From assembly GCA_963776085.1 (NCBI GenBank), contig CAVZMS010000124.1, positions 2,488 to 66,487 on the forward strand: a stretch of DNA of 64,000 nt. The letters are read 5' to 3'. The number at the start of each line of letters is the position of its first letter. Position 1 is the stretch's first letter. Shown piece after piece: positions 1,397-25,084 of the stretch. The stretch comes from an uncultured delta proteobacterium (GTDB taxonomy: Bacteria > Desulfobacterota > DSM-4660 > Desulfatiglandales > HGW-15). A program made the translations under genes and the position numbers. The notes beneath the pieces were generated by a model. The model searched no databases and had not been told where the DNA came from. It saw nothing but the letters and a program-made list of their open reading frames with translations.

Positions 1397-1489
1397 CAAG
1401 ATTCTCCTTGTTGCTGTTTTGATTGAAAAGCCGATGGCTCCGGCATTCCGGATGTATCGGCTTTGATTTACTCTGTTTCTAATATTTAT

Positions 1490-2469: not shown

Positions 2470-2481
2470 TATTATTTGCCC

Positions 2482-3088: not shown

Positions 3089-3116
3089 AACAACCTCATA
3101 TGATTTAATTTATCTC

Positions 3117-3558: not shown

Positions 3559-3594
3559 ATTGACCTCCAGGAAATATACTAAAAAAAACGTTCC

Positions 3595-3740
3595 GGGATT
3601 CAAGGGTTCAAGGATTCAAGTGAAACTGAAAAGGTTTTTAGACTGTAGGCATTTAGCTCTCAATCTTAAGGCTAACAACCTAACAGCCTTCAGCCTAAAT
3701 CCCTAAGCTCAGCCCCTTGAACCATGGAGTCCTTGAATCC
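3595..3740. repeat. nested imperfect palindrome built from short repeated words, between mlaD and mlaF
   Basis: GGATTCAAGG (3596-3605) pairs with CCTTGAATCC (3731-3740). GTTCAAGG (3606-3613) pairs with CCTTGAAC (3715-3722). There is an inner AAGGCT...AGCCTT stem. Confidence 0.8.
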
Positions 3741-3763
3741 TTATTATTTTCCTTTGTAATACC

Positions 3764-4511: not shown

Positions 4512-4519
4512 ATTACATC

Positions 4520-5304: not shown

Positions 5305-5484
5305 ATATCCCTCAAACCCTTTTCAGCATCCATGTGAAATAGATTATTATCGTGTCCAATCCGACCTTCTTCATATATCGCCTGATAAGATACTCATAAA
5401 TATCAGCGACTACCTGAGTATCACGGGAGGGATTTAATAGCATCAATAGGCAGATATTTCAATATAAAAACGAACGGATCTTTT

Positions 5485-6384: not shown

Positions 6385-7148
6385 CTGTTCCTCTTATGAA
6401 TGATCATCAAGCCCTCAAGGGTCAAATCTTCCTCGACATGATCGATGCTTTCCGACTCTTTATATATAAGCGGCGCGATACCTCCTGTCGCAATGACCGT
6501 CAATTCATCTCCCATCTCTTTCTTGATGCGATTTACGATACCATCCACCATGCCGGCGAAGCCATAGATAATCCCCACATTCATGCCGCTTATAGTGTCT
6601 TTGGCGATCACATTTTTCGGTTTGGCAAATATCTCCACCCTTGGCAGTTTGGACGCCTTTTCAAAGAGGGCCTCACATGAAATAATAACCCCCGGAGCGA
6701 TGGCTCCTCCAATATATGCCCCATCCTTTGAAACGCAATCAAATGTGGTGGCGGTCCCAAAATCAACTATAATCAAGGCAGTATGATATTTTTCATAAGC
6801 GGCTACCGAGTTGACAATCCTGTCCGCTCCTACCTCCTTCGGGTTATCGTATTGAATCGGCATACCGGTCTTTAATCCCGGCCCCACGATCATGGGTCTG
6901 ATATCGTAATAGCGACGGCAAAACTCCTCCAATACGTTTAAAAGGGACGGGACGACGCATGAGATAATGATATCGGTAATGTCCTCCATCCTGATTCCTG
7001 AAGACCTGAAAAGATTGCCGACTGTGATTCCCATCTCATCAGACGTGGCATCTTTCTCAGTCCTTATTCGCCAATGCCCAAGGATATCGTCCTGTTTAGC
7101 CACGCCCAGAACGATATTAGTATTACCTACATCAATGCAGAGTAACAT
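6381..7148 (-). CDS. coaX: type III pantothenate kinase
   Basis: Intact 255-aa ORF. The N-terminus is [11 protein letters not shown], with ...[10 protein letters not shown] and GGIAPG motifs. There is a 4-nt overlap with ldcA. Confidence 0.9.
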
Positions 7149-7170
7149 ATATCAAATCCTTTTACGGTTT

Positions 7171-7258
7171 AAGGTATACGGTGTACGGCGTACGGTTTAT
7201 GGTTTAGGTTTACGGTTTATCCTTTATCCTATTCCTTACACCTTATACCTTATACCTT
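7171..7258. repeat. imperfect word-repeat palindrome between folP and coaX
   Basis: The left arm AAGGTATACGGTGTACGGCGTACGG (7171-7195) pairs with the right arm CCTTACACCTTATACCTTATACCTT (7234-7258). The middle consists of GGTTTA/CGGTTTAT repeats. Confidence 0.75.
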
Positions 7259-7263
7259 ATGCC

Positions 7264-8130
7264 TCATACTTTATACCCTGTTTTTATCGCATCAATAATC
7301 TTTACTGTTTCCAGCGTCCTTTTTACGTCATGCACCCTCACTATGTGGGCACCGTTCAATATACCCGCAGAAACGGTTGCCATGGTTCCGGTATCTCTTT
7401 CATCAGGCTCATTCTGAAGGATATGTCCGATAAATGCCTTCCTTGAGGTCCCCAACAGTATTGGCCTCTCCAAAGAGCTAAATTGTCTTAACTCCTTTAT
7501 TATCTCGAGGTTATGATGGAAGGTCTTACCGAAACCTATCCCAGGATCTATAATAATGAGGTCCTTTCTGATCCCGGCCTTAACCGCCCGTTCAATGGCA
7601 TCCCTAAGAAAGTCCAATATCTCCTGTATAAGGTTATCATAGGTGGGATTTTTTTGCATATCACCAGGGGTCCCCTGCATATGCATAAGAATAACAGGGA
7701 CACCTGCCTCCGCAACAACCGAGGCCATCTCAGGATCAAACCTGAGCGCGCTTATATCATTGATCATTGAAGCGCCTGCCTTCAGGGCCTCTACAGCCAC
7801 CTTGGCCTTGCAGGTATCGATACTGATAGGAATTTTGATATCTTTGCTAAGGGCCTCTATTACAGGTATAACCCTGGCTATCTCCTTATCGCATGGAACA
7901 GTCTCGGAATATGGCCTGGTCGATTCGCCGCCGATATCAATGATGTCGGCCCCTTCACGCGCCATGGCAATCCCCTGTTCGATCGCCTTATCCCCTTGAA
8001 TATAGAGGCCGCCATCTGAAAAGGAATCCGGGGTCACGTTAAGGACACCCATTATATGGGTCCTGTTACTCAGATTTAAAGAGTGATTGCCCCATTCCAA
8101 GACAAACCCCTTTTTCTGAAACCCCTTCAA
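7264..8130 (-). CDS. folP: dihydropteroate synthase
   Basis: Intact 288-aa ORF with [15 protein letters not shown] and [14 protein letters not shown]. It sits in the classical ftsH-folP arrangement. Confidence 0.93.
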
Positions 8131-10127: not shown

Positions 10128-10206
10128 GTCATGCCGGACTTGATCCGGCATCCAGCTTCATTAGTTATTAAAAATCATTCTGGATTCCGGCTTCCGCCGG
10201 AATGAC
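10128..10206. repeat. pair of inverted 27-28 nt hairpin repeats (GTCATNCCGG-loop-CCGGNATCCAG family)
   Basis: GTCATGCCGGACTTGATCCGGCATCCAG lies at 10128-10155. CTGGATTCCGGCTTCCGCCGGAATGAC lies at 10180-10206 in the opposite orientation. ORF 10168-10380 is a translation artefact (..VIPAEAGIQ..). Confidence 0.85.
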
Positions 10207-10525
10207 GGTAATACTGGGTTCCCCGACTCTGAAGGAAATGACAAGTCGCAAAGTGACAATAGAAATCTTACCTTGCCTGAAATTGAGGGGGTTCACCATC
10301 CCAGATAGTGACACTAAAGGATTATAACCTTCTAAAAACGCATGTATCTTAACTCCATTGCCCGATTCGATTATTTTCATCTAAATCAAATGCGCTTTCG
10401 ACCTTTGACTCTTCTATTTAGTTATGTTAAATAAAATATAAGACATGTGTCTCTGTAAACTTGAATCCTTTATTCGTTAGGTCAATTCATATGATCTCAT
10501 TCCATGCCTGTTAGGAGAAAACTTA

Positions 10526-11240: not shown

Positions 11241-14200
11241 ATGAGATTCATCGCCGACCTGCATATACACTCCCATTTCTCAAGGGCCACCTCACGAGAC
11301 CTTGATCCTGAAAACCTTGCTATATGGGCCCAAAAAAAGGGCCTTACCGTCATAGGCACCGGAGACTTCACCCATCCCGGCTGGGTGGAGGAGTTGCGGG
11401 ACGAACTTGTTGACGCTGAGAACGGGCTTTATCGTTTGAGGCCTGATCTGGAAAAGATGGTTGAAAGAGAGGTCCCGGAATCCTGTAAGAGGCCGGTCAG
11501 ATTTCTGCTTTCAGGCGAGATAAGCTGTATCTACAAGCGCGACGGAAAGACCAGGAAGATACACCACCTGATTCTCATGCCGGATTTTGAATCAGTCATA
11601 AAGCTGAACAAGGCCCTTGAACGAGTGGGCAACATCAGATCCGACGGAAGACCGATCCTGGGCATAGATTCCAGAGAACTACTTGAAATGACCCTCGATG
11701 CAAGCGATAGGGCCTTTTTCATACCGGCCCATATCTGGACCCCTTGGTTCTCCCTCTTCGGATCCAAATCCGGCTTTAATGCCATAGAGGAATGCTTCGC
11801 GGACCTTACCCCCCATATTCACGCCCTTGAGACAGGGCTGTCCTCCGACCCGCCCATGAATCGCCTGCTCTCGGCCCTTGACGACTATCTGCTGGTCTCC
11901 AATTCAGACGCCCACTCCCCTTCAAGACTGGGGAGAGAGGCGAATATCTTGGACACGGAACTGGACTATGAGCAGATACTTAAGGCCATGATCAGTAAAG
12001 ACGGTTTTAAGGGGACCATCGAGTTCTATCCTGAGGAAGGAAATATCACCTGGACGGGCATCGTAAATGCCAAGTGAGGCTCCACCCGGAAGATACCAGG
12101 AGGCATAAAGGCGTCTGTCCCTCATGCGGAAAGGCCATCACCGTTGGGGTCCTCCACAGGGTTACGGAACTGTCCGACCGCGACAGCCCGAAGATCTCAA
12201 AGGACTTTTACAGCCTCATCCCCCTGTCCGAGATCCTGTCCGAGACCCTTTGTTGCGGGGCCGCGACTAAAAAGGCGAACTCCGCCTATGAAGATCTGCT
12301 TGCAGCCCTTGGTCCAGAACTGGCTATCCTTATGGAGATCCCATTAAAGGATATCGAGGATGCCGGCGGCATGTTACTGGCCACGGCCATTGAAAGGATG
12401 CGACAGGGCAAGGTTATTAGGGAAGCGGGGTATGACGGTGAATACGGGGTAATTCGTCTGTTCCACGAAGGGGACATAGCACAGATCTCCGGGCAAAAGA
12501 CCCTTTTTACAATCCCGAATGATGAGATCGCCGATAAGAAAAGTCCCACGACGACTAAAGGCCTGAAAAAGGATATATATGCCGATCCTATAGGCCGGGG
12601 AAAGGCCTCCTTTTCAGACCCGATCCTGCCTATCCTTAATCCGGAACAAAAAGATGCGGTTATGCATTTAGGAAGTCATCTTTTGATCGTGGCCGGGCCC
12701 GGCACAGGAAAGACCATGACCCTGACCCACCATATCGTTCATATTATACGCTCAAACATTGCCGAACCGGGGCAGGTGCTCGCCCTGACCTTTACAAATA
12801 AGGCAGCAGGAGAGATGAGGGAAAGGATAGATTCCCTGCTGCCCGAGAATCAATCCGTTGCGGTTCATGTGTCCACCTTTCATGGTTTCTGTCTGGAACT
12901 CCTCAGGAATGAAGCTGAAATAATGGGACTTTCTCCCTCTTTTAATATCTGCTCGGAACAGGACTCGTCAATAATAGCCCATCAGGTCATCTTGGATTAC
13001 GGCAAGGGCAAACGTCTGGCAGGGCAATTATTAAGACAGCTCCCCCGAATAAAAAGGTCCTCCGTCATAGATGAAGATACCGACAGGCAGCATCAAGACC
13101 TTTTCCCCATCTTTCAGAAATACCAGGAAAGGCTCAGTGACTTGGGCATGCTGGACCTGGATGACCTGGAGGTTGAGACCTTGAGGATGTTTAAAGAACA
13201 TCCTGAGGTATGCAGTAAATACGCAAGGCGTTTTCCGTATATCTTTGTGGATGAATACCAGGACACCAACCCGATCCAGTCGGCCATTTTAAAGGAGATC
13301 GTAAAGCAAGGCATAACGGAGATCTGCGCCATAGGGGACCCTGATCAGGCCATTTACGGATTTCGAGGGGCTGATGTCGGAAATTTCCATAACTTTTCAA
13401 AGGATTTTCCAGGGGCAAAAAAGATTTCCTTGTTGAAAAACTATCGCTCAACCGAGGTTATTTTAAAAGGGTCCTCAACGCTTATGGACAAGGAAAGGCC
13501 CCTTGAAGGCATCTCCGGAAAGGGGGAGCCTATTCATATCGGCACATGCCTAACCCATTCCGAAGAGGCGGAGATGGTCGTAGAACAGATAGAGAAACTG
13601 ATGGGAGGGATTACCCTCTTTTCCCTTGATAGTTCAAGGGTGTCTTCCCATGAAGATGGAGAAGACCTTGGATTTGGAGACATAGCGGTGCTGTACAGGC
13701 TGAATTCCCAGGGAGATGGATTTGAGGAGGCCTTTTTACGGGCGGGACTGCCCTATGTCAGGTCAGGTGAAAAGGCATTGATCAATCAATACCCGGTTAA
13801 TATTATATGGCGATTGTTTCAGACCCTCTCTTATCCTGATAACGACTACTATTTAAAGGCATACATGGACCTCCTTGGAGAAAACGGCCTTGCCGGAGAT
13901 AAGATATTAAGAGGATGCGCGCTTGAAGGCAGTCTTGAAGAGATTATCGATCATGCCTTATCATTGCATGAATTTGATCTCTCTTCCAAAGAATCGGCGG
14001 ATGCGGTCCGCCGCCTTAAGGCCATAGCGGAAAATATCGATGGAGATATAGGATCCCTTCTGGATAAACTATCCATCGACAGGGGCATTGACCATACAGC
14101 CCTTTCGGGGGACCGCATTGCGCTCATGTCTCTCCATGCGGCCAAGGGCCTCGAATGGCCCGTTGTGTTTATCACGGGATGTGAAGACAGGCTTATCCCA

Positions 14201-14440
14201 TGTTCCCTTTTCGGGGATCATGACGAGGCCGAGGAGAAGAGGCTCTTTTACGTGGGAATGACGAGGGCCCGCCGCAGGCTTATCCTGTCCCATGCCAAAA
14301 GGAGAAAGATCAACGGACGCATCCTTGACATGAAACCCTCACCCTTCCTTGCCCTTATCCCTGACTATCTGTGCGCCCCCCTCGAACGCGCCCCATGGAA
14401 ACGCAAAGGGAAAAAACACAAACAACTGGAGCTTTTTTAA
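11241..14440 (+). CDS. endonuclease Q-like (PHP-fold plus Zn ribbon) fused to a UvrD/PcrA-type superfamily-1 helicase (one frame shift)
   Basis: The N-terminal part 11241-12077 has DLHIHSHFSRATS, GTGDFTHPGW, PAHIWTPWFS and SNSDAHSP..LGRE. Adding one A to the AAA run at 12041-12043 gives EEGKYHLDGHRKC..CPSCG...GVLHRV, as in archaeal EndoQ. The helicase motifs are AGPGTGKT, TFTNKAAGEMRER, VDEYQDTN, GDPDQAIYGFRGA, KNYRST, LHAAKGLEWPVVF and YVGMTRAR. Confidence 0.85.
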
Positions 14441-14457
14441 GACAGTCTCTTAGTTTA

Positions 14458-14520
14458 TGATAATTTTGACCACAGGTCAAATTATCACAAATAACTTGAC
14501 CTTTACTCCAAATTATCATA
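14458..14520. promoter_or_regulatory. palindromic operator-like site with three GATAATTT half sites upstream of the DUF4143 ATPase gene
   Basis: TGATAATTTTGACC (14458-14471) and GGTCAAATTATCA (14475-14487) form the palindrome. A third copy, AAATTATCA, lies at 14510-14518, just before the ATG at 14532. Confidence 0.5.
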
Positions 14521-14531
14521 TATAAAATCCC

Positions 14532-15689
14532 ATGGAAAAGACCCGCATAATAGAAAGAATTCAAGATATTAAACTCCCGGCAGATAGATCCGCTTTTCTT
14601 TGGGGCCCCAGAAAGACAGGCAAGACCACCCTTTTAAGACAAAAGTTCCCCGATGCATGCTGGATAGACCTTCTGGATCATGACATGTTTTTATCCCTCA
14701 GCCGAAAACCCACCGGCCTGCGTCAGATCCTGGAGGCGCAATCTTCCAGGGTTGTTGTCATTGATGAGGTACAAAAGGTTCCGGATCTCATGGATGAAAT
14801 CCATTGGCTTATGGAAAACAGGGACTATCGGTTCATACTTTCAGGCTCCAGCGCAAGGAAACTGAAAAGGTCAAAGGCAAATCTCCTTGGCGGCAGGGCA
14901 TGGCGTTTTGAGCTTTATCCCCTTGTCACTCATGAACTCAAGGGAAAATTTCATCTGGAAAAGGCCCTCCTTCACGGGCTCCTGCCTTCCCATTACCTCT
15001 CAACCGACAGTGAGATGGATTTAAATGCCTATGTCTTTGATTATCTGAAAGAGGAGATACAGGCAGAGGCCCTTACCCGCAATATGCCGGCCTTCTCCAG
15101 GTTTTTGGATTCCGCCGCGGCCACCAATGGCATGCTGCTCAACTATTCAAATGCAGCGCGGGAGGCGGGGGTCTCGGTCAAGACCATAAGGGAATATTAC
15201 CAGATACTCGAAGACACACTCATAGGACGCCAATTACCCCCATGGAAAAAATCAAAAAAGAGGAGGTTGATTGAGACCTCCAAGTTTTATTTCTTTGACA
15301 TGGGGATTGTCTCCGCACTTTTACATTATAAAACGCTTCACCCGTCCACCGACGGTTTTGGACGCGCCTTTGAGCACTTCATCATCCAGGAATGTTGGGC
15401 ATACAGGCATTACAGCCGTCTGGATTTCCCGATACATTTCTGGAGGACCGCCGGAGGGGCGGAAGTGGACCTTATACTAGGCGATGCCGAGGTAGCGATA
15501 GAAATCAAATCATCTGAAAACGCGGGAGACAGAACAAAGGGCATTCATCTTTTTAAAGAGGAATTCAAATGTAAGAATGCCTTCATCGTCTCAAGGGACA
15601 GGGTTCCAAGAAAGGCAACCTCAGACATCACCGTACTGCCCTGGAAGACCTTCTGCGAGATGCTCTGGGATGGCCGCATTATAAGATAA
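14532..15689 (+). CDS. AAA-family ATPase of the AAA_14 + DUF4143 type
   Basis: Intact 385-aa ORF with GPRKTGKTTL (Walker A) and VVIDEVQK (Walker B). The C-terminal half resembles DUF4143 (..FFDMGI.., EVDLIL). Confidence 0.8.
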   Translation: MEKTRIIERIQDIKLPADRSAFLWGPRKTGKTTLLRQKFPDACWIDLLDHDMFLSLSRKPTGLRQILEAQSSRVVVIDEVQKVPDLMDEIHWLMENRDYRFILSGSSARKLKRSKANLLGGRAWRFELYPLVTHELKGKFHLEKALLHGLLPSHYLSTDSEMDLNAYVFDYLKEEIQAEALTRNMPAFSRFLDSAAATNGMLLNYSNAAREAGVSVKTIREYYQILEDTLIGRQLPPWKKSKKRRLIETSKFYFFDMGIVSALLHYKTLHPSTDGFGRAFEHFIIQECWAYRHYSRLDFPIHFWRTAGGAEVDLILGDAEVAIEIKSSENAGDRTKGIHLFKEEFKCKNAFIVSRDRVPRKATSDITVLPWKTFCEMLWDGRIIR

Positions 15690-15700
15690 GACTTTCCCCG

Positions 15701-15766
15701 ATGGCTGAAACCCATAACATGAGTCTTAATCAATGGTTCGCGGATGTCCTTTCAAAGGCATTCTGA
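15701..15766 (+). pseudogene. remnant of an antitoxin gene (HicB/RHH-type C-terminal tail)
   Basis: A 21-codon ORF, MAETHNMSLNQWFADVLSKAF, resembles the conserved ..SLNQWi...L tail of HicB-like antitoxins. No upstream part is present. Confidence 0.35.
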
Positions 15767-15792
15767 CAACCCGGAGATCTTCTGAAATCCAA

Positions 15793-16016
15793 TCGAAGGG
15801 CCTGCCCTATTTTTTCCCTTGTAAAATAATTCGCGTTATAGTTATCATGCCTCCGCACAATCTCAGAAATTGTCAACTTTCCAACCCAATCTTTACAGAT
15901 TAATTATTAACCTGTAACCAGCCTATGTATTTCTAACCCCCCGTGTTACAGAAACGGGAGATTCAAAAGTTCATTTAAAAATTTATTAACCGGTTTAATT
16001 GGGGCATAAATTTAAG
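15793..16016 (+). repeat. copy A of a duplicated promoter/leader element (64-nt identical core at 15900-15963)
   Basis: It aligns with 18151-18372. A putative -35 TTGTAA (15819-15824) is followed by 17 nt and then TTATCA. The core is TTAATTATTAACCTGTAACCAGCCTATGTATTTCTAACCCCCCGTGTTACAGAAACGGGAGATT. The element ends 15 nt before the ATG at 16031. Confidence 0.85.
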
Positions 16017-16030
16017 GTAGAGATGAATCA

Positions 16031-16906
16031 ATGAATTTCGTTGCCATCGACGTAGAAACAGCGAATGCCGATATGGCATCGATTTGCCAGATCGGTCTTG
16101 TGAAGTGCGAAAATGGCGTCCTGTCGGATGAATGGAAAACCTATGTCGATCCAGAGGATTACTTCGATGGCATCAATGTATCTATCCACGGAATCGACGA
16201 GTCTGTTGTTAAGGGTGCCCCAACGTTCCCAGAATTAGCCGATACGCTTCGTTCATATCTCGAAGGTACAGTAGTTGTCTGCCACACGCACTTTGATCGG
16301 GTGGCGATACATCAGGCAGCTCAGCGGTATGGCGTTACCGCGCCAGAATGTACTTGGCTTGATTCGGCGCGGGTCGCGCGTCGGGCGTGGAAGGAGTGTG
16401 CATGGAAAGGGTATGGGCTTTATAACGTATGCAAGATCCTCGGATATGACTTCAAGCACCATGATGCCTTGGAAGACGCAAAGGCAGCGGCGCATATCCT
16501 TCTTGCCGCAACCAATGAAAGTGGGCTTGATCTAGATGGCTGGCTCAAGAGAGTACGACAGCCAATTGACCCCACAGCGAGCAGTTCTGGTTCCGCCATA
16601 AGGCGTGAAGGAAACCCAGAAGGCGCTCTTTACGGTGAGGTTCTTGTTTTTACCGGCGCCCTTGAAATACCACGGCGAGAAGCAGCCGATTTGGCGGCTG
16701 CCATTGGTTGCCAAGTGGCATCAGGGGTCACAAAGAAAACAACGATGTTGGTAGTGGGTGATCAGGACATTAAGAAACTCGCAGGTCACGAGAAGAGTTC
16801 TAAGCACAGAAAGGCGGAGGAACTCATTGAGAAAGGCATCCCAATTCGAATTCTCAAAGAAAGCGATTTCAAAGAGCTTGCGAGATTCTCGAACGAGATC
16901 GCCTAA
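16031..16906 (+). CDS. DnaQ-like DEDDh 3'-5' exonuclease fused to a C-terminal BRCT domain
   Basis: Intact 291-aa ORF with AIDVETAN (Exo I), CHTHFD (Exo II), HHDALEDAKAAA (Exo III) and a BRCT-like C-terminus (VFTGAL...TMLVVGDQ...KHRKAEEL..GIPI). Confidence 0.8.
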   Translation: MNFVAIDVETANADMASICQIGLVKCENGVLSDEWKTYVDPEDYFDGINVSIHGIDESVVKGAPTFPELADTLRSYLEGTVVVCHTHFDRVAIHQAAQRYGVTAPECTWLDSARVARRAWKECAWKGYGLYNVCKILGYDFKHHDALEDAKAAAHILLAATNESGLDLDGWLKRVRQPIDPTASSSGSAIRREGNPEGALYGEVLVFTGALEIPRREAADLAAAIGCQVASGVTKKTTMLVVGDQDIKKLAGHEKSSKHRKAEELIEKGIPIRILKESDFKELARFSNEIA

Positions 16907-16931
16907 TACCTGATAGGGCGTTTAGACAGAT

Positions 16932-17483
16932 ATGCCGCTGAATCATACATCGAAATATGCAGAGTTGACTGACGAGCAGTTTGCCCTTATTGGCAGACTT
17001 GTAATTGAATGGTCGAATATTGAGTTTCTGTTAGGAGTTTTGCTCAGTCGACTCCTTTTAACGCCGGAGTTTCTTGGGCGCGTTTACAGCGATGAAATGA
17101 GTGCTAGCAGAATACAAGATGCTCTAAAAAAGGCTTTGGATATCCACAGACATCGTTACGGCTCTAAGCTCGTCCCCCCTGAAACACTTGATGAGATATT
17201 GCGACTAAACGCTGATATTGAGAAGTTCCGCGGATTGCGAAACAGGTTCTCCCACTTCTGTTGGTCTCGCTCAAATGATAACGAGATATTTGGTTCTGGG
17301 CTGTCCGGGTTCGTACCTCCAAGCAAACGTCTTGATAAAGATTCAATGGAGGTAAGTGTGTCTGAGTTAAAAGAGTTTTACCGGAATGCGTACCAACTTG
17401 TTGAACACCTATCTGGTGTAATCCAACGGCTTCTTGAAACAGATGAAGATGAAAGTCTAACAAGAGCTTTGAGAAGGACGTGA
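16932..17483 (+). CDS. hypothetical protein with an Rx4H (HEPN-like) motif
   Basis: Intact 183-aa ORF, 25 nt after the exonuclease gene. The motif LRNRFSHFCW (R-N-x3-H) sits in a predicted helical protein. The HEPN assignment is inference. Confidence 0.5.
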   Translation: MPLNHTSKYAELTDEQFALIGRLVIEWSNIEFLLGVLLSRLLLTPEFLGRVYSDEMSASRIQDALKKALDIHRHRYGSKLVPPETLDEILRLNADIEKFRGLRNRFSHFCWSRSNDNEIFGSGLSGFVPPSKRLDKDSMEVSVSELKEFYRNAYQLVEHLSGVIQRLLETDEDESLTRALRRT

Positions 17484-17559
17484 GTTATTCTGTTGTTCCA
17501 CTCACGCCCCTCAAGCTGGGCATTGCTTTATAAAAAGTCAAACATTCAAAGGTTATGAA

Positions 17560-17895
17560 ATGAACGATAAGGTTAAAAAAAATAAGAGTGATAAGAGCAA
17601 TTTTGATAGTGAATATGATTATTGGTTTAAACGAAAGAAAAACACTAGTAATATCAATAAACCTAGGATGGAATGTTTAGAGGAAATTCTTAGATATCAT
17701 AAGGATAAAATACCATATGACATAATATCAAATAAGAGATCTATGTGGAAAAACATATGCAAAAGAAATTCTAATAGAGGAAATTTTTGTTACACAATAT
17801 TCATCTCAGTATGTAATGCATATCTTATAAGAGAAACAAATTTTTTAAGACCGAATGATGAAGCAATTAGTAAATGGTGGGCAAAAAGAAAATAA
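17560..17895 (+). CDS. hypothetical Lys-rich protein (very AT-rich orphan ORF)
   Basis: 111-aa ORF with no recognisable motif. Its composition is clearly different from the preceding two genes. Confidence 0.45.
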   Translation: MNDKVKKNKSDKSNFDSEYDYWFKRKKNTSNINKPRMECLEEILRYHKDKIPYDIISNKRSMWKNICKRNSNRGNFCYTIFISVCNAYLIRETNFLRPNDEAISKWWAKRK

Positions 17896-18150
17896 TAGTT
17901 CCTTATAAGTAGAAAAATATCTTTCATGCCAAGCAATATAATCTCCTGGTTAACGAGGGCTGGCTTTTTCGCTGGTCGCTTCAAAAGCTAGCCTGTTACT
18001 CGGCTCGTCAATGTATCTCCAACCTCTCCTCCCACTCTACATCTTCGCCCTTTTTATGCCTTTCGACCTACTCAAGGTCCCGAGCAAAGTCGAGGGACTC
18101 AAGGTCTCTGACCGAATAGCGAATAGAAAGTCGGAATAGTACTGAGCCTG

Positions 18151-18372
18151 TCGAAGGGATGGCCCTCTTTTTCCCTTGTAAAATAATTTACATATATCTA
18201 TTATACTTCCCGATATCCGCATCAATTCATAACTATTCAACCCCACCTTTACAGCTTAATTATTAACCTGTAACCAGCCTATGTATTTCTAACCCCCCGT
18301 GTTACAGAAACGGGAGATTTAAATATTCATTTCAAATTTTATTAACTTATTAAATTAGCTGATAAATTTAAG
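18151..18372 (+). repeat. copy B of the duplicated promoter/leader element (64-nt identical core at 18256-18319)
   Basis: It has the same element order as copy A. The -35 TTGTAA (18176-18181) is followed by 17 nt and then the -10 TATTAT (18199-18204). The flanks are diverged while the core is identical. Confidence 0.85.
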
Positions 18373-18491
18373 CTTAGTAAAGAGCCAACTACCCCCTTGC
18401 ACCAACCGTGGACCGGCATTCGTTCGCAGTCCGATATACATTCTTTGAACCGTTTCAGTGAGGGCGTTTTGGCCATCTGGAGGATGAGAAT

Positions 18492-18815
18492 ATGAACCTC
18501 ACAAAGGAAATAGAAAAAGATAGACAAGAATTACTCGAAATTCTTTCTCGTGACGATAGTAATATGGGTAAGAAGACAAGCGATCTACAAAATTTAGGAC
18601 GCCGGGTTGGGGCAAGTACAATTAACCTCATCAAAGGTTATGGGGAAGCTTCTGTTCCTGAACTTGCACAGAGCATTCATCACGCATTGCAAACCAAATC
18701 TACTGTGGCTGCACTACAGATATCTCGAAAATACCTCATTGTTTCAATAATACTTGCAGTTATCGCCCTTTTAAGCATGGTAGCCACTTGGATAGGTATG
18801 CTATGCACAAAATAA
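18492..18815 (+). CDS. hypothetical protein with a C-terminal transmembrane anchor
   Basis: 107-aa ORF with ggagg 7 nt upstream. The C-terminus is YLIVSIILAVIALLSMVATWIGML. Confidence 0.5.
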   Translation: MNLTKEIEKDRQELLEILSRDDSNMGKKTSDLQNLGRRVGASTINLIKGYGEASVPELAQSIHHALQTKSTVAALQISRKYLIVSIILAVIALLSMVATWIGMLCTK

Positions 18816-18833
18816 CTATGAAATGTATTTTTC

Positions 18834-18922
18834 GTCTAACTTGTCACTTCAGCAGACATCCATGGCGGTGCGGACGTGCAATCTTAAAATTTTGTAATGC
18901 CCCGTCTGCTTTTGAGTTTGAC
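18834..18922 (+). other. attC-like imperfect hairpin (weak candidate)
   Basis: The layout is GTCTAAC (R''-like, 18834-18840) ... AGCAGAC / GTCTGCT (perfect 7-bp inner stem) ... GTTTGAC (18916-18922). The spacer lengths of 10 versus 5 nt are atypical. Confidence 0.35.
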
Positions 18923-18991
18923 TTTTTACGCCCAGAGCGAGACCATCATAGATAGCATAATCGAAGGGAGTCAACTAAACGGAGGAACGAC

Positions 18992-20083
18992 ATGAAAATA
19001 GAGGCTCTTCAATACCACCAGAAGGACAAGGATATATTTGTTTTTTCGATGGACCCACACTACATGAAACAGTTAGTCAAAATAAGTGATGTGTCGACAG
19101 GTGATAAGAACTTCCAAAGGCCATTCGATCCCAAGAGAGTAGCAGAAATTAAGACCTATGTTCTTGGAAGGGATAAACTCTATAAAAAGGGGAAAGACGT
19201 CTACGCCAAAGGTTTCATTCCTAATGCAATAGTCGTGAATTTGCCAAATTCTTACAAGGTTGAAAATCAAGGGAGTAAGGCATATATCCATTTCCCTGAT
19301 GTAAAAAATATTAAAAGGTACAAAGAAACAATAGAGATCATCGACGGACAACATCGGTTACTGGCATTCGATGATGAATGCAAGACACTTATGGGTGCGC
19401 AGCAATATGAGATGTGTTTTGTGGCCCTACTCAATCTTTCTGATAGCGAGAAAAAAGAAATATTCATGGTCCTCAATGAAAGACAAAAGACGGTAGATAA
19501 GAACATTCTTCTTCGTCACAAGAAGTTGCTCAAGCTCCTCCTGGACGATGAAGAAACCAGATATGATGTTATTACTAGATTGAATTCTGAAGTTGATTCA
19601 CCTTTCTACGGCAAAATCATTATGGCAGGCGAGAAGAAAACCTATGGTTTGAAAGCTGTCCAAATCGACAGTGTATTAAATTCCTCGAAGGCATTAGAAA
19701 AACTCATTGATTCAAAGGATCAGATAAGTGAGAAATCCTACAAGATATTAAAAAATTATTTCCTTTCTTGGCAGGCTAATTTTCCCATTGTGTGGTTCAA
19801 GGCCAATAATACCCTGACAAAAATGGCTGGCTTTCGCTTTATGTCCTATCTTTTTCCATACGTGTACGACATTTTGAAATCCGGAAAAAATTTTCAGATA
19901 AAAACATTTTCCGATATTATCTCTAAAATAAAATCGGATGATTTCAACGAAGAGTTCGATATCAAAAAAGCGGGCAAGTTTTCCCACTTTCAAGAACAAC
20001 GCGGGATAATCAGATATGCAACACAACTAGGCAAAGAGCTTAGAGAACATTTCCAAGAAAGAGATGATGATATCATTGTTTAG
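18992..20083 (+). CDS. DGQHR domain protein (DndB-like, ParB/Srx-fold superfamily)
   Basis: Intact 363-aa ORF with a literal DGQHR motif (IEIIDGQHRLLAF), followed by EKKEIFMVLNERQKTV, as in the DndB/DGQHR families. Confidence 0.8.
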   Translation: MKIEALQYHQKDKDIFVFSMDPHYMKQLVKISDVSTGDKNFQRPFDPKRVAEIKTYVLGRDKLYKKGKDVYAKGFIPNAIVVNLPNSYKVENQGSKAYIHFPDVKNIKRYKETIEIIDGQHRLLAFDDECKTLMGAQQYEMCFVALLNLSDSEKKEIFMVLNERQKTVDKNILLRHKKLLKLLLDDEETRYDVITRLNSEVDSPFYGKIIMAGEKKTYGLKAVQIDSVLNSSKALEKLIDSKDQISEKSYKILKNYFLSWQANFPIVWFKANNTLTKMAGFRFMSYLFPYVYDILKSGKNFQIKTFSDIISKIKSDDFNEEFDIKKAGKFSHFQEQRGIIRYATQLGKELREHFQERDDDIIV

Positions 20084-20842
20084 GTGCATATGGAAAAATT
20101 GTCAACCAAGCTCATCGCGAACCTCGATGTAACTACTATACGGTTCCAGACCGAAATCCTTAATCGCCTCAAGTTATTCGATTTTTCTAAATCGGCCATT
20201 CTTCACTATTCCGAATCGCAGGAAAAGGAATTCCAAGGCTATTCCTTTGAACAACTTCAAAGCCGGTTTAAGTTGGTAGGCTTTAAAGAAGGCAGTAAAC
20301 TTAAAAGTATTAAATATAAGGACATGGTCACTGTTGGGAACTCCTACATAAAAGGCGAACTTTCTGACTTGATTTTCGTCCTAAATATGGCAACCTTTGA
20401 GCACTGGCTTTTGTGGGTACTCAAAACCCTCATTCTATCTAATCCACGGGAATTTTACCCTAAGAGCAATAAACAGGTTGAGGTGACTTATCTCAAGAAA
20501 TTTGATGAAATGCCCATGCTCTGGGAAGAGCTTGTTTCTGATTATCTCAGTACCTTGCCATATCAAGGAATGAAGATTCTTCTGAAGACGTTCTTGAGTT
20601 GCTTCAGGCTCAAGGAAAGTGATTTCACCAAGAATTTATTGGGGATAATTAACGAAAACAGCCAATGCAGGAACGTCATTATGCATAACCAGAAGAAGGT
20701 AAATGCCGCATATACCAAGAAATGCGGGAGATTTGGAAAGTTTACTGAAGGGGAACATATAGTGGTTACTGAGGAATTACTATTTGACCAAGCAGATAAC
20801 CTTTTACGATTCATGCAAGATTTTCGTAATAATCATGCATGA
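20084..20842 (+). CDS. hypothetical protein with a C-terminal Rx4H (HEPN-like) motif, coupled to the DGQHR gene
   Basis: 252-aa ORF that starts (GTG 20084 or ATG 20090) directly after the DGQHR stop. The motif is QCRNVIMHNQKKV. The HEPN assignment is inference. Confidence 0.55.
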   Translation: MHMEKLSTKLIANLDVTTIRFQTEILNRLKLFDFSKSAILHYSESQEKEFQGYSFEQLQSRFKLVGFKEGSKLKSIKYKDMVTVGNSYIKGELSDLIFVLNMATFEHWLLWVLKTLILSNPREFYPKSNKQVEVTYLKKFDEMPMLWEELVSDYLSTLPYQGMKILLKTFLSCFRLKESDFTKNLLGIINENSQCRNVIMHNQKKVNAAYTKKCGRFGKFTEGEHIVVTEELLFDQADNLLRFMQDFRNNHA

Positions 20843-20896
20843 CAAGAAACCCTATAACAAGTTCTAGCCATGCCGGCATGGAGAAGGGAGACAAGG

Positions 20897-21679
20897 ATGG
20901 GTTTACTGCACGAAATCCAAACATCTGTAGTACAGGAGGGCGCGCATCTCGGCTCAGTTCTCCTCAAGCTACAATTGCTGGCTGCGAGACTTGGGAGTGA
21001 ACCCTTGGAGGAGTGGATCAAATACGAGTCCGAGGGTTATCCACGCGATGCTGAGATTCCGTCCTATCGTGTAGTCGCGGTTTCCTATAGAGGCACGTTC
21101 TCCGGTCCATTCGGCTCCGGAATTAGGGACGCCCAGATTCCCGGCTACTTAGTCGAGAAGATTGCCGGTAAGCAGTGGACAAAGCACGAGATCCGGGACG
21201 GCATTGCTGCGATCGACGAGCTCGTAAGGAGCTCTGCTGAAGGAGATGGAACACTCGGAATCGATGCGTCAAATCTAATCCTGCTACTGCAAGGGAAGGT
21301 CTACGCAGACTATGCGTGCAACGATGTTCAGGGCACCATTTCTAGGGCGGCCTTGACTGAACTTCAGTACGCAGTTCGCAGCCGTATCCTCGAACTTACG
21401 CTTGAACTCGAGAGATCTATTCCGGCAGCTACAGAGATTACCTTTGGTAGTCCCGCGTCATCCGAGAAGTTCAATTCCGAGAAGGTCAATCAGATATCCC
21501 AGCAGATTATCTACGGAAACGTCACGACGATTTCGAGTAGCGGAGCAGGCTCTCAGATAAACGTTTCCCTCGGTGAGCGAGACGATAAAGCGTTCATCGA
21601 ATACCTCGTCAAAGCTGGAATTCCCAAAGGTGATGCTTCAGAACTAGCTAAAATCGTTGCGGCTGAAGAGCCAGAGTAG
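20897..21679 (+). CDS. AbiTii-like abortive-infection family protein
   Basis: The N-terminus MGLLHEIQTSVVQEGAHLGSVLLKLQLLAARLGSEPLEEWIKYESEGYPRDAEIPSYR matches the AbiTii N-terminal pattern as I remember it. The gene is visibly GC-richer than its neighbours. A further 47 codons continue in the +1 frame to 21821. Confidence 0.6.
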   Translation: MGLLHEIQTSVVQEGAHLGSVLLKLQLLAARLGSEPLEEWIKYESEGYPRDAEIPSYRVVAVSYRGTFSGPFGSGIRDAQIPGYLVEKIAGKQWTKHEIRDGIAAIDELVRSSAEGDGTLGIDASNLILLLQGKVYADYACNDVQGTISRAALTELQYAVRSRILELTLELERSIPAATEITFGSPASSEKFNSEKVNQISQQIIYGNVTTISSSGAGSQINVSLGERDDKAFIEYLVKAGIPKGDASELAKIVAAEEPE

Positions 21680-21879
21680 TACTCATGAACCTCTTGGAGC
21701 GAAAGCCAAGGCGTGGCTAGTAAAGAATATTCGAAAGGCAGCGGATGGTACGTGGAAAATCGGTGTATCTGTCGCCACTAAAGTGTTGACAGAAGCGGCA
21801 CTAAAGTTACTACGGGCTTAAGTAATTCTATGCAGTCTCAGGTCAAGGACGATTATATCAGCCTCCGAAGGAACGTGCT

Positions 21880-21946
21880 GCATAACAACCGCATCCACAC
21901 CGATGCGTGTAGCAGCGGCACGCGCGGGTGATACGGGACGTTAGAC
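21880..21946 (+). other. attC-like recombination site (best candidate)
   Basis: GCATAAC (21880-21886) ... GTTAGAC (21940-21946, fits GTTRRRY). The arms TAAC-AA-CCG-C-ATC and GAT-A-CGG-GAC-GTTA pair with a 1-nt offset (an extrahelical base). The length is 67 nt. Confidence 0.5.
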
Positions 21947-21992
21947 GCAATATTCATTTGGGATGGCATAACTAGAAAATCGGAGGAATTTA

Positions 21993-22697
21993 ATGGCAAA
22001 CTCATTCTTGTACAAAAATTCAATTCGACTATTCTTATATCAGCATAAAACAGCTATCACAGCGATTGCTACAGCTATAGGAGCTTTCGCTCTTGGTATA
22101 TTCTTTAAACTTACTTCGGAGGCACCTATATGGGAGATAACAATCAGTCTTGGCATATTTGCCTTCTGTACTGCGCTGACAGTATTCGTGAGCATATCAC
22201 CAGAGTATTATGAAAAAATAAGATATGCTGAGAGTTTCCTTCCGGCACTTTTCGACGTTCTTGGTTTAGATAAATCTGCACGCATTACTATTCACCGCAT
22301 GCTTAGTAAAAAACGTCAGACATACGAGCAGGTAACCGATTACTTTCCGACACGGACAGGTAAGGGACGCCATTTCGATTTCACAAGGGGGATTACTGGT
22401 CAAGCTTTTCGTACAAGGATCTCTCATGTTTACAGTATTCCTACAGGCACATTGCTAGCAGAAGATTACAAGCATCGTTGGCCATTTACCGACGATGAGA
22501 TCTCTCGCATTACACAGGACCGTCGTTCATATTACGCTTATCCGATAGGTCAAGACGGTTCCTTCGCTCTCGCTGTCCTGTACATGGATTCGGCAGATCA
22601 AACGATGTTCTCTGCAGAGAAGAAAGTGGAGTTAGACAGTAAAATGGAAAAACTCTTTCTTCCAACACTTGAAGAACTTCTTGGCATTAAGAGATAA
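21993..22697 (+). CDS. two-TM membrane protein with a C-terminal GAF-like domain
   Basis: Intact 234-aa ORF with ggagg upstream. Two hydrophobic helices occupy the first ~70 aa. These are followed by ...GITGQAFRTR...YYAYPIG.DGSFALAVLYMDS, which resembles a GAF fold (inference). Confidence 0.5.
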   Translation: MANSFLYKNSIRLFLYQHKTAITAIATAIGAFALGIFFKLTSEAPIWEITISLGIFAFCTALTVFVSISPEYYEKIRYAESFLPALFDVLGLDKSARITIHRMLSKKRQTYEQVTDYFPTRTGKGRHFDFTRGITGQAFRTRISHVYSIPTGTLLAEDYKHRWPFTDDEISRITQDRRSYYAYPIGQDGSFALAVLYMDSADQTMFSAEKKVELDSKMEKLFLPTLEELLGIKR

Positions 22698-22701
22698 ATG
22701 A

Positions 22702-22750
22702 GCCTAACCAGCGGCTCAATACAGACGCGGCTACGTCACGCCGGTTAGCC
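22702..22750 (+). other. short attC-like hairpin
   Basis: GCCTAAC (22702-22708, fits RYYYAAC) ... GTTAGCC (22744-22750). CTAACC-A-GCG pairs with CGCCGGTTAG with one bulged A. At 49 nt it is shorter than typical attC sites. Confidence 0.4.
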
Positions 22751-22790
22751 ATCTCGTTATGTTTCGTACAACTCCTAATCTTCAAATGTT

Positions 22791-23351
22791 ATGAAAAACA
22801 TACCAAACATATTAAGCGTTCTAAGGATAATTATTGCACCCTTCTTATTATATTTGGCTTGGAATGGGCACAAGTACCTTTTTATAGCTTTTCTGATCGT
22901 ATCATTATTATCAGATGCGATTGACGGTTTTATTGCCAGAAAATTCGAAGCGTCAACTAAAACAGGTGCAAAGTTGGATAGTTTAGGAGATATGGCTACC
23001 TATTTAGCTGTACCGTTTTGTGCCTGGTGGTTATGGCCTCAAATCTTAAAAAAAGAAGCACCATATGTCTTAACAGCGGTTGGGGCATATATTATCCCGT
23101 TGGCTGCCGGCATTCTAAAATTTCATAAGGTCCCAAGCTATCACACTTTTAGTGCAAAAATTGCTGCAGTAATCATGGGTATAGCCATGCTATTTTTATT
23201 TATAGCCGAATTCACATTATTTTTTAAATTTGCGGCAATATTTCAAGCAATTGTAGCTCTTGAAGAAGTCTTAATCACAATTCAATTACCTGAGTTAAGA
23301 AGTGATGTTAAATCAATCTGGCACGTAAATAATGAATTCGGCGGTCCCTGA
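22791..23351 (+). CDS. CDP-alcohol phosphatidyltransferase family protein
   Basis: Intact 186-aa ORF with DAIDGFIARKFEASTKTGAKLDSLGD, which matches the D-x2-DG-x2-AR...G-x3-D-x3-D signature. It is multi-TM and AT-rich. Confidence 0.85.
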   Translation: MKNIPNILSVLRIIIAPFLLYLAWNGHKYLFIAFLIVSLLSDAIDGFIARKFEASTKTGAKLDSLGDMATYLAVPFCAWWLWPQILKKEAPYVLTAVGAYIIPLAAGILKFHKVPSYHTFSAKIAAVIMGIAMLFLFIAEFTLFFKFAAIFQAIVALEEVLITIQLPELRSDVKSIWHVNNEFGGP

Positions 23352-23583
23352 GCTTTCCGTTAGTGGAGATATACTCTTTCTTACCACTGCCCATCCGTTT
23401 TGTCATTGGGGAGCCATTCGGGGTCGGGCGCTGACATTTACAAAGAGGAACGAAAAAAATTAGGACATCATGTCTCTCATCAGAAGCTTCATCCCCTCTT
23501 TTTCCTTTAAGGCGCTAATTTTTGTTGATTTTTTCTCTCCTATCTGATTATCTATTAAACCTGATAACACCTTCAAATATTTC

Positions 23584-23610
23584 CTGGATTCCGGCTTCCG
23601 CCGGAATGAC
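23584..23610. repeat. hairpin repeat identical to 10180-10206
   Basis: CTGGATTCCGGCTTCCGCCGGAATGAC is the same 27-mer as at 10180-10206. A REP-like stretch follows to about 23700. ORF 23522-23713 is an artefact. Confidence 0.85.
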
Positions 23611-23794
23611 GATTCGCGGCAAGACTTCGGCGAACCCTTCGGTATTGAGTTCAGGGCCGAAATGCTCAGTCGAGTCGCCGCAGGCTATCAAGAATTCAGG
23701 AGCTTGGAGTTAGAATAACAACGAGGGGGAATATTTTTAAAGACCCCCACCCGACCTCCCCCTAAAAGGAGGAGGAATTAATGGCGGTAATATA

Positions 23795-25084
23795 ATGATC
23801 AGCCGGTACACACGCCCTGAAATGGGGAGGATATGGGAGCTTAAGAATCGGTACGCCAAATGGCTTCAGGTTGAGATACTGGCGTGTGAAGCCATGGCAA
23901 AAGAGGGCCTTATTCCAAAGAAGGCATTGGTTAATATAAGAAAGGCCAGATTCTCGGAAGAACGCATCCTTGAGATAGAAGAGGTGACCAGGCATGATGT
24001 GATCGCCTTTTTAGAAAACGTGGCCGAATCTGTCGGGCCTGACTCCCGTTTCATCCATATGGGGCTGACCTCTTCGGACATCCTGGACACCGGCTTCGCG
24101 CTCCAGCTGAAAGAGGCCATGGAATTGATTATCAACGACGTCCATGAATTCATGGATACAATCAAGGCGAAGGCCAAGGAGTATAAATTTACCGCCATGA
24201 TAGGCCGGTCCCACGGAATCCATGCGGAACCCATCACCTTCGGTCTCAAGCTTGCCGTATGGTATTCTGAGATGGGAAGGAATCTAAAGAGATTGGAGCA
24301 GGCCCTGGAGACGATCAGCTACGGCAAACTATCCGGGGCGGTTGGTACCTTTGCCAATACATCCCCCAAGATTGAGGCCTATGTCTGCGAGAAACTGGGG
24401 CTGAAGCCCGCTGAAGCATCTACCCAGATAATACAGCGCGACCGGCACGCGCAATATTTTTCCACCCTGGCAGTAGTGGCCGGGACACTGGAAAAGATAG
24501 CCGTTGAGATACGGCACCTCCAGAGGACAGAGGTGCTTGAGGCTGAAGAGGCCTTTGAAAAGGGGCAAAAGGGATCTTCCGCCATGCCTCATAAGAAGAA
24601 TCCGATCGGGTCCGAAAACATTGCCGGCCTTGCACGTCTTGTGCGATCCAATTCCCTGGCTGCCATGGAAAATATGGCATTATGGCATGAGAGAGATATC
24701 AGTCACTCCTCTGTGGAAAGAGTAATTGGGCCTGACAGCACCATAATAATCGATTTCATGCTCCATCGACTTAATAGAATCATAAAAACCCTGGTGGTAT
24801 ATCCCAGGAGAATGGAAGAGAACCTTAATCTGTTAAAGGGTTTAATATTTTCACAGCAGGTGCTTATAAAACTCGCAGGTATGGGATTGAGTCGTCAGAC
24901 TGCGTATGAGATAGTGCAAAGAAATGCCCTGAAGGTCTGGGAAACAGGAAGTGATTTCAAGACACTCCTGCTGGAAGACCCGGACATAAGGGGATATCTT
25001 ACAAAGGAATCCATAGAAGAGATATTTAATCTGGACTATCATTTCAAGTATGTGGAAGAGATATTTGACAGAGTTTTTACATAA
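23795..25084 (+). CDS. purB: adenylosuccinate lyase
   Basis: Intact 429-aa ORF with MISRYTRPEM, GLTSSDILDT and the GSSAMPHKKNP signature. Confidence 0.95.
   Translation: MISRYTRPEMGRIWELKNRYAKWLQVEILACEAMAKEGLIPKKALVNIRKARFSEERILEIEEVTRHDVIAFLENVAESVGPDSRFIHMGLTSSDILDTGFALQLKEAMELIINDVHEFMDTIKAKAKEYKFTAMIGRSHGIHAEPITFGLKLAVWYSEMGRNLKRLEQALETISYGKLSGAVGTFANTSPKIEAYVCEKLGLKPAEASTQIIQRDRHAQYFSTLAVVAGTLEKIAVEIRHLQRTEVLEAEEAFEKGQKGSSAMPHKKNPIGSENIAGLARLVRSNSLAAMENMALWHERDISHSSVERVIGPDSTIIIDFMLHRLNRIIKTLVVYPRRMEENLNLLKGLIFSQQVLIKLAGMGLSRQTAYEIVQRNALKVWETGSDFKTLLLEDPDIRGYLTKESIEEIFNLDYHFKYVEEIFDRVFT

Follow-up and report, generated by a model that had tools for sequence, protein, structure and literature searches.

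The locus described here is an island of ∼8 kb within a 64-kb stretch of DNA from an uncultured, sulfate-reducer-like bacterium of a Desulfobacterota-like lineage (hereafter the window), where it lies between a gene for a DUF4143/AAA_14 ATPase (14532–15689, + strand) and purB (23795–25084, + strand). Nine open reading frames (ORFs), all on the + strand, fill this interval. From left to right they encode a DEDDh (DnaQ-like) 3′–5′ exonuclease with a BRCT domain (16031–16906), a HEPN-superfamily protein of 183 amino acids (aa) with an RNRFSH motif (16932–17483), a lysine-rich 111-aa product, g111 (17560–17895), a 107-aa protein, g107 (18492–18815), a DGQHR-domain (DndB/ParB-like) protein (18992–20083), its all-helical partner of ∼250 aa (20090–20842), an AbiTii-family protein (20870–21824, with the ORF itself at 20870–21679), a 234-aa TM-GAF protein (21993–22697) and a 186-aa CDP-alcohol phosphatidyltransferase (22791–23351). 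The shared orientation is not specific to the island, since all genes called between 10526 and 28856 lie on the + strand. An earlier reading of this DNA, here called the original prediction, had described nine + strand ORFs at these places and core genes on both flanks, with DEDDh–BRCT, DGQHR/DndB-like, AbiTii-like and TM-GAF products and two Rx4H proteins (183 and 252 aa) among them, and no tRNA, integrase or transposase gene at the borders; all of this was borne out. The PADLOC models matched in the region are PDC-S01, PDC-S48/DEDDh, DpdB-like and AbiTii. Profile searches against Pfam, PADLOC and NCBIfam give no direct match for five of the products, those of 183, 111, 107, 252 and 234 aa.

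Many homologues of the exonuclease gene in other genomes end in GCCTAACAA, the inverse-core box of an attC site, and a fold-based scan around them shows regular arrays of 55–72-nucleotide (nt) GCCTAAC...GTTAGGC hairpins (loci L203, L180, L193, L220, L224, L218 and others). A strict regular expression for attC sites, RYYYAAC...GTTRRRY with the boxes 50–150 nt apart, finds no pair anywhere in the window. A relaxed fold-based heuristic recovered Vibrio and environmental sites and also returned 270 ‘sites’ in 531 kb; being non-specific in GC-rich loci, it was used only for choosing training sites. We relied on a covariance model, R1, built from 24 aligned canonical sites of environmental integron arrays. 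In that alignment 72% of R-box/L-box cells pair, compared with 25–41% when the partners are slid, and its covariation score was reached by none of 500 shuffles.

Searched with R1 on both strands with filters off, the whole window yields four matches at E < 10, all of them inside the island, and only two are significant. Site 1 (21880–21946, + strand) is 67 nt long with boxes GCATAAC...GTTAGAC, scores 30.2 bits (E = 2.3e-4), and its bottom strand folds as an R-box/L-box hairpin. Site 2 (22702–22762, + strand) is 61 nt long with boxes GCCTAAC...GTTATGT, scores 29.7 bits (E = 3e-4) and begins 5 nt past the stop codon of the TM-GAF gene. The two occupy consecutive intergenic spacers, after the AbiTii gene and after the TM-GAF gene, 756 nt apart, in the same orientation as sites of the training arrays. 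Boxes and paired stems are present in both, each with one departure from the RYYYAAC/GTTRRRY consensus, and this is why the strict expression missed them: site 1 is one base off in R″ (GCATAAC), and site 2 in R′ (GTTATGT). True attC sites outside the training set score 23–37 bits with R1. Among controls, the best score with filters off was 10.9 bits in 96.8 kb; with default filters, 914 kb gave as its only matches at E ≤ 1 the long sites of a Vibrio superintegron (19–21.8 bits), the non-integron loci in that set returning nothing at the reporting limit.

These sites separate the three genes of the right half. The AbiTii gene matches PF18864 at 1e-44 (153.4 bits against a cut-off of 27.6), and its 56%-identical homologues sit on conjugative enterobacterial plasmids. 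Compared with intact homologues, its frame is broken twice, by a +1 shift near 21674 and again near 21806; an intact 306-aa homologue from an E. coli IncFII plasmid aligns over both window ORFs, and the homologue at locus L218 is a single ORF. The window copy is either a pseudogene or the product of an assembly error, the latter being plausible because many other genes in the window are split. In its strong AbiTii domain match (PF18864, 153 bits) it resembles lactococcal AbiT (AbiTi + AbiTii), from which it differs in being a single gene with no AbiTi partner identified, in having a reading frame that is broken in the assembly, and in a C-terminal helical extension shared with the enterobacterial plasmid homologues.

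Between the two attC sites, in the position of a cassette, lies the TM-GAF gene. The AlphaFold2 (AF2) model of its product (pLDDT 85) has four N-terminal helices (residues 2–89), which would lie in the membrane, followed by a GAF-fold domain. Foldseek aligns the model with GAF domains at probability 1.0, with E-values from 1e-6 to 1e-4 and a target-normalised TM-score of up to 0.72; Pfam gives no GAF match, and the assignment therefore holds at the level of the fold. Twelve homologues make up the family, and the one in Candidatus Electrothrix is near resolvase and primase genes. The CDP-alcohol phosphatidyltransferase gene (PF01066, 7.7e-22; all NCBIfam matches below their cut-offs) takes the next cassette position, has the lowest third-position GC content (GC3) in the window (0.31) and is not of a defence type. 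Its status as a cassette in its own right was rejected, its relatives being without attC sites. Profile searches bear out most domain calls of the original prediction.

An independent short-read contig (L173, run ERR10755944) of 1581 nt is 100% identical to 21808–23388. It holds exactly attC site 1, the TM-GAF gene, attC site 2 and the CDP-alcohol phosphatidyltransferase gene, and ends at the AbiTii junction and 37 nt past the last gene. Such identity speaks against a chimeric origin of that stretch.

No intI gene was found in Pfam scans of the larger ORFs between 0.3 and 45 kb, including those that flank the island on both sides. The sole tyrosine recombinase found (32790–33698, 302 aa) adjoins tRNA-Met and keeps this position in relatives L002 and L005, which are without the island, and for this reason we take it to be of the Xer type. 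A tblastn search for an intI remnant with one IntI-like protein (from locus L224), a single query of limited sensitivity, matches only this recombinase. The array is therefore not a complete integron, which would have intI beside it. A complete integron would also have an attI site, whose sequence is particular to its integrase, and a Pc promoter upstream of its first cassette; nothing ties the promoter-like sites of the repeat described below to an attI. Integrase-less arrays of the kind called CALIN are common. By definition, a CALIN comprises two or more attC sites with under 4 kb between them on a single strand, and no intI (PMC4889954), and since the right half has two + strand sites less than 4 kb apart and no intI, it is a CALIN in that sense, with the sites called by R1 rather than by IntegronFinder's model and no intI or intI pseudogene recognised within 10 kb. 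The attC and intI searches that the original prediction had called for, run with our own model in place of IntegronFinder's, thus come out as two sites and no intI. Like the described CALINs, this one has each of its sites after a promoterless small ORF, and its cassettes are unrelated to antibiotic-resistance cassettes. It differs in that two sites are the minimum size, in its host, the uncultured Desulfobacterota-like lineage, in its setting amid further cassette-like genes, a longer run in which attC sites are either missing or degenerate, and in its detection by a home-made model.

The left half begins with the exonuclease gene (Pfam RNase_T 6e-17, BRCT 4e-5; PADLOC DEDDh 5e-25). A PADLOC match to PDC-S48 at E = 3.7e-38 covers only model positions 5–185 of 411, that is, the exonuclease domain alone. 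Relatives at 80–89% aa identity (up to 87% at the nucleotide level) occur in Planctomycetota, Desulfotomaculum (Bacillota), Opitutales, Thermoleophilia (Actinomycetota), Nitrospirota and a Methanosarcinaceae metagenome-assembled genome (MAG), and at this identity the family spans at least six phyla plus an archaeal MAG. Nucleotide similarity to these loci is confined to 16019–16923. attC matches are present at 17 of the 80 exonuclease loci (L176–L255), all but one of them on the strand of the gene; at L218, AbiTii and exonuclease homologues lie between attC sites of one array, and at L224 IntI-like gene fragments in divergent orientation accompany the attC array. In these comparisons the exonuclease gene behaves as a single-gene mobile unit, and many other genomes carry it as an integron cassette. 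At its stop codon in the window is a 27-nt inverted pair, GCCTAA-15 nt-TTAGAC (16901–16927), which scores a non-significant 6.4–7.5 bits with R1. At the corresponding place homologues have GCCTAACAA together with a full attC, and the pair is possibly a collapsed attC relic. We also observed that the spacer from 16907 to 16931, up to the next ATG, resembles positions 4886–4915 of a Desulfotomaculum MAG locus (L177) that has no clear gene downstream of its exonuclease, while the sequence past the ATG differs; the 27-nt relic may travel with the exonuclease gene.

The 183-aa protein has 233 homologues and is closest to the pEK499_p136 family. R103, N104 and H108 (R-N-x3-H) are invariant across 26 homologues, six of which match PF18736 (pEK499_p136) with a best E of 3.8e-6; the window protein itself has no Pfam match. 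Some databases label homologues ‘HEPN family nuclease’, and with an Rx4-6H motif and a family profile match via its homologues the protein falls within the HEPN superfamily. Elsewhere its gene stands alone, beside MazEF, beside an FRG-domain gene, or in Vibrio alginolyticus, at a locus laid out like a chromosomal integron array and carrying attC-like sites; in the other loci examined it is never beside the exonuclease. Next comes g111, whose coding status is uncertain: profile searches and viral contigs gave no relatives, and it forms a singleton cluster. A 54-nt hairpin, GGTTAAC...GTTACTC (17948–18001), follows it and scores 5.7 bits with R1, which is poor for an attC site. The g107 product, with a hydrophobic C-terminal stretch that is probably membrane-spanning, has no family match and no relatives in viral contigs; its cluster has five members at ≥90% identity from other metagenomes, and it is therefore a real, conserved gene. 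Between g107 and the DGQHR gene lies an 89-nt degenerate attC-like hairpin, GTCTAAC...GTTTGAC (18834–18922, + strand), at 8.3 bits (E = 1.9, searching the island only).

The DGQHR gene and the one after it form a two-gene module to which AbiTii does not belong. The DGQHR protein matches TIGR03187 at 111.8 bits against a cut-off of 58.85 (4.9e-32), and Pfam DndB; it falls well short of the equivalogs DpdB (71.5 bits, cut-off 300) and DGQHR_dnd_1 (43 bits, cut-off 450). No dnd or dpd genes were found in the island by Pfam, PADLOC and NCBIfam searches, so neither a DndB/DpdB orthologue nor modification genes are present, as a Dnd or Dpd system would have. The stop codon of the DGQHR gene abuts the first possible start of its partner at 20084. 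The partner is all-helical in its AF2 model (pLDDT 84) and carries an E..RNxIxH motif whose residues E189, R194, N195 and H199 are invariant in a family of 44 close members. A profile search of 1.84 billion proteins gave 741 relatives, and E..Rx4H is invariant in the 49 remote relatives sampled, three of which match HEPN_RiboL-PSP (best E 2e-5). The partner has no direct Pfam match, and neither Foldseek nor a PDB profile search found a PDB match. These relatives make it likely that the partner is a HEPN protein. A relationship to the 183-aa family was also considered and rejected (hhalign probability 0.2).

The pair is conserved in loci L081–L087 at ∼87% nucleotide identity over 18971–20842. 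Copies at this identity occur in five other contigs whose flanks are unrelated and hold ABC transporter genes, a type I restriction–modification (R–M) system or an inovirus-like prophage. At L081 the pair is upstream of a type I R–M system and near a different DUF4143 ATPase gene; at L082, L083 and L084 (∼300–8000) it adjoins an inovirus-like prophage, the genes of which include Zot-like and REP_ORF2-G2P-like ones. A fixed operon of AbiTii or the exonuclease with its neighbour was rejected, given the different genes that follow the DGQHR pair elsewhere and the separate occurrence of the 183-aa gene and the exonuclease. Operons of ParB/DGQHR and HEPN genes, DndB as a ParB–HEPN fusion and links between AbiTii and HEPN were described by comparative genomics in 2013 (PMC3710099, PMC3632139). 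As in those operons, the DGQHR gene here is followed by a gene for a product with an invariant Rx4H, and the remote relatives of the partner touch RiboL-PSP-HEPN, which is listed there as ‘in operon with ParB’. Unlike them, the pair has no dndCDE, dpd or methylase genes adjacent, and its partner lacks a Pfam, PADLOC or PDB match, the HEPN fold being unconfirmed by structure search. The original remark that several modules are not recognisable named systems applies to the DGQHR–HEPN pair, TM-GAF, g107 and g111, but ParB/DGQHR + HEPN operons and AbiTii–HEPN links had already been described.

A direct repeat of ∼230 nt, which the original prediction had missed, brackets the exonuclease–HEPN–g111 block. 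Copy A (15790–16018, + strand) ends exactly at the point from which the exonuclease module resembles other genomes (16019), and copy B (18147–18374, + strand) lies 117 nt upstream of g107. The copies are 81% identical over 180 nt, including stretches of 64 and 21 nt at 100%. Each has a sigma-70-like site (15819–15848 in A, 18176–18204 in B) made up of TTGTAA, a spacer of 17 or 18 nt, and TATCAT or TATTAT, and each has a 25-nt palindrome, TTACAGnTTAATnATTAAnCTGTAA (15893–15917 in A, 18249–18273 in B), that occurs nowhere else in the window; searches of 596 Gb of genomes and of a viral contig collection do not find it. The repeat as a whole was not found in the genome or viral contig collections, nor at any locus fetched. 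We rejected the repeat as a structured RNA, since its fold z-scores are +0.7 and −1.1 and it has no Rfam match even at E ≤ 1. The repeat is most economically read as a duplicated, host-specific promoter/operator that would drive two adjacent operons.

The border material and the base composition bear out the original description only in part. The antitoxin remnant proposed for the left border corresponds to a 21-codon HicB-like ORF (15702–15767, + strand) that aligns with positions 35–51 of 51 of PF05534, at the C-terminus, with an E of 0.043, below the cut-off; this weak match makes an antitoxin remnant possible. Of the proposed REP-like fragments, one is a real hairpin of 28–30 nt, CTGGATTCCGGCTTCCGCCGGAATGACG, with a CCGGC-TTCC-GCCGG core, but it lies at 23584–23613, with a second copy at 10180–10209, and the stretch at 17990–18160 has no second copy in the window. 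A 31-nt stretch similar to this hairpin was seen in a Planctomycetales MAG (L222). The short dead ORFs proposed for 23352–23520 match nothing. As for the jumps in composition, genes outside the island have a GC content of 0.458 ± 0.036 (range 0.38–0.54) and a GC3 of 0.50 ± 0.06. The modules called GC-rich fall inside the host range (exonuclease 0.508, AbiTii 0.521). Outliers are found only among the AT-rich modules, with a GC content of 0.371 for the DGQHR gene, 0.391 for its partner and 0.364 for the CDP-alcohol phosphatidyltransferase gene, whose GC3 is 0.31. The AT-richest part of the GC profile, 17400–17999 (GC 0.30–0.32 per profile window), contains g111.

We consider it probable that the island is a mosaic of independently acquired gene-sized modules, of which the right half at least is the remnant of an integrase-less cassette array, a CALIN. 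Judged from comparison of the modules with their relatives, the mosaicism is real and its unit is the gene. On this account the right half would read, in order, AbiTii, attC, TM-GAF gene, attC, CDP-alcohol phosphatidyltransferase gene, its cassettes having once been put in place by a recombinase of the IntI type with folded attC bottom strands as substrates; this integrase would since have been lost, or its gene would lie in another part of the genome. The left half would consist of genes from highly mobile families, some of them cassettes elsewhere, whose attC sites here have been lost or reduced to relics, so that the genes are now fixed in place. The two left-hand operons would be transcribed from the duplicated, lineage-specific ∼230-nt promoter/operator. 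Most products would be stand-alone or two-gene anti-phage or toxin modules, comprising HEPN RNases, a ParB-like DGQHR and HEPN pair, an AbiTii abortive-infection protein, a ligand-gated membrane protein and a 3′–5′ exonuclease; these defence functions are predicted from family membership and genomic context. A cassette origin is supported by the relatives of three island genes (exonuclease, AbiTii and 183-aa HEPN) that are cassettes elsewhere. Also in favour of the account are the mobility of the modules, the compositional outliers, the PADLOC matches and the published precedents for CALINs and for defence genes in cassettes. The original prediction had offered two routes, an integrase-less cassette array or a defence island formed in some other way; the first is supported for the right half, with its two attC sites and no intI, and in the left half only relics below threshold were found.

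Several observations weigh against this account. Only two attC sites pass, and the stability of their hairpins is modest (z = −1.6 and −2.3). R1 is a home-made model for short attC sites with roughly calibrated E-values. At the left-half junctions, a search of the island alone finds only sub-threshold attC-like relics of 6–8 bits, and the spacers of 25, 0 and 27 nt at three junctions leave no room for an attC site. The DGQHR pair has no attC, by R1, in any of its five other contexts. No attC follows the CDP-alcohol phosphatidyltransferase gene, whose homologues, at ≤60% identity, are neither mobile nor attC-associated. The collections searched hold no close relative of the host (best purB identity 79%).

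Much of this would be expected of an ordinary defence island at a chromosomal recombination hotspot, with the attC-like hairpins being incidental terminators, REP-type palindromes or single-gene passengers. Most junctions are without attC, the DGQHR pair moves without it beside type I R–M genes or an inovirus-like prophage, a DUF4143 ATPase gene is also near that pair at L081, and REP-like material is present at the right border. Gene order shared with relatives also breaks off at purB: it is kept downstream of this gene and not upstream, where it is already lost at the 79% purB identity that is the best in the genome and metagenome collections. Yet both matches carry the R″/R′ boxes (GCCTAAC/GCATAAC and GTTAGAC/GTTATGT) together with the pairing pattern, and they score ∼30 bits where controls of more than 1 Mb reach at most 11 bits with filters off and at most 22 bits in the Vibrio array. 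Their orientation and their position just past a stop codon are those expected of cassettes, and relatives of three island genes are attC-flanked elsewhere. For these reasons we regard an ordinary island with incidental hairpins as unlikely. Within the cassette account, an array in decay and cassettes inserted into a pre-existing island would both fit.

A second alternative is that the array is alive, its cassettes being mobilised in trans by an integron integrase whose gene lies in the same genome but beyond the 64-kb window, so that the locus is a working satellite array. About half of CALINs are in replicons with IntI, and their mobilisation in trans has been proposed by Cury et al. (PMC4889954). 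The ends of the L173 contig at the AbiTii junction and past the last gene may reflect within-population variation at these junctions, which would fit such activity, but contig breaks have many other causes, and the attC relics and the frameshifted AbiTii gene point to decay. A working satellite array therefore seems to us rather improbable.

The last alternative, a chimeric metagenomic contig made of fragments from different organisms, could draw on the GC shifts from module to module and on an error-prone assembly (the split mla operon and NamZ gene, the frameshifted AbiTii), but we judge it highly improbable, as the frameshifts are indel errors and not misjoins, the independent assembly is 100% identical over 1581 nt and spans three junctions, genes abut or lie 0–27 nt apart across composition changes as in real operons, host core genes are contiguous on both sides with the downstream order of relatives, and the left modules are linked to one genome by the lineage-specific 230-nt repeat, which is present twice.

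Outside the island, the core genes upstream comprise mla, LD-carboxypeptidase, coaX, folP and ftsH, and those downstream L,D-transpeptidase, RNase II, the Xer-type recombinase, tRNA-Met, Tol-Pal, NamZ and SLT. The mla operon (MlaA, MlaC, ABC ATPase and MlaE; 1490–5304, − strand) appears as about 12 overlapping ORFs in different frames, each with a partial Pfam match, which indicates either heavy pseudogenisation or indel errors in the assembly, the latter being more likely. The NamZ exo-muramidase gene (40491–41367, − strand) is in two ORFs, NamZ_N and NamZ_C, with a frameshift-like break between them, and the ORF pair at 11241 and 12074 is possibly also split. Indel errors in the assembly are a serious alternative to real decay. 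That pair (11241–14440, + strand) consists of a 278-aa ORF with a PHP-like HxH start and no Pfam match at E ≤ 0.001, overlapping by 4 nt a 788-aa UvrD-type protein whose helicase domain starts only at residue 188; the two are either translationally coupled or the parts of a split fusion protein. The left neighbour of the island, the DUF4143/AAA_14 ATPase (Pfam DUF4143 3e-33, AAA_14 7e-22), matches PDC-S01, a PADLOC candidate-defence family, at 2.6e-57. Just 5′ of its start is a 30-nt inverted repeat (14456–14520), 83% complementary with a 5-nt spacer, that may be an operator or a terminator.

As a CALIN, the right half belongs to an already known kind of element, and what is new here is one more member and not a new element class. 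Integron cassettes are known to encode streamlined defence systems, including HEPN-only proteins (10.1101/2024.07.02.601686). The modules described here resemble those cassettes in being small, with one or two genes, and in their HEPN-only, Abi-type and nuclease-fusion content. They differ in that Darracq et al. studied large Vibrio chromosomal integrons with IntI, and in that none of the present modules, whose anti-phage roles are predicted, is a named PADLOC system. We raise as a tentative possibility, rather unlikely on present evidence, that one or more of the compact unnamed modules is a new, self-contained system against phages, spreading in the form of a promoterless cassette. The twin 230-nt elements could in addition be a lineage-specific, regulated ‘expression dock’ that takes up such modules with no integrase involved. 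The candidates would be the 1.85-kb DGQHR and HEPN-like pair, the TM-GAF cassette and the DEDDh–BRCT exonuclease cassette.

A recent proposal sees integron cassettes and CALINs as large reservoirs, for the most part unexplored, of miniature anti-phage systems. The evidence for it is almost all from Vibrio, and the same pattern is seen here in an uncultured Desulfobacterota-like lineage. The locus offers three short candidates for study: an exonuclease cassette that crosses phyla and possibly the boundary between Bacteria and Archaea, the DGQHR and HEPN-like pair, and the TM-GAF cassette. It may also illustrate how cassette arrays decay into ordinary-looking ‘defence islands’ as their attC sites erode, which would bear both on how such islands are interpreted and on how many former cassettes are missed by integron-finding tools.

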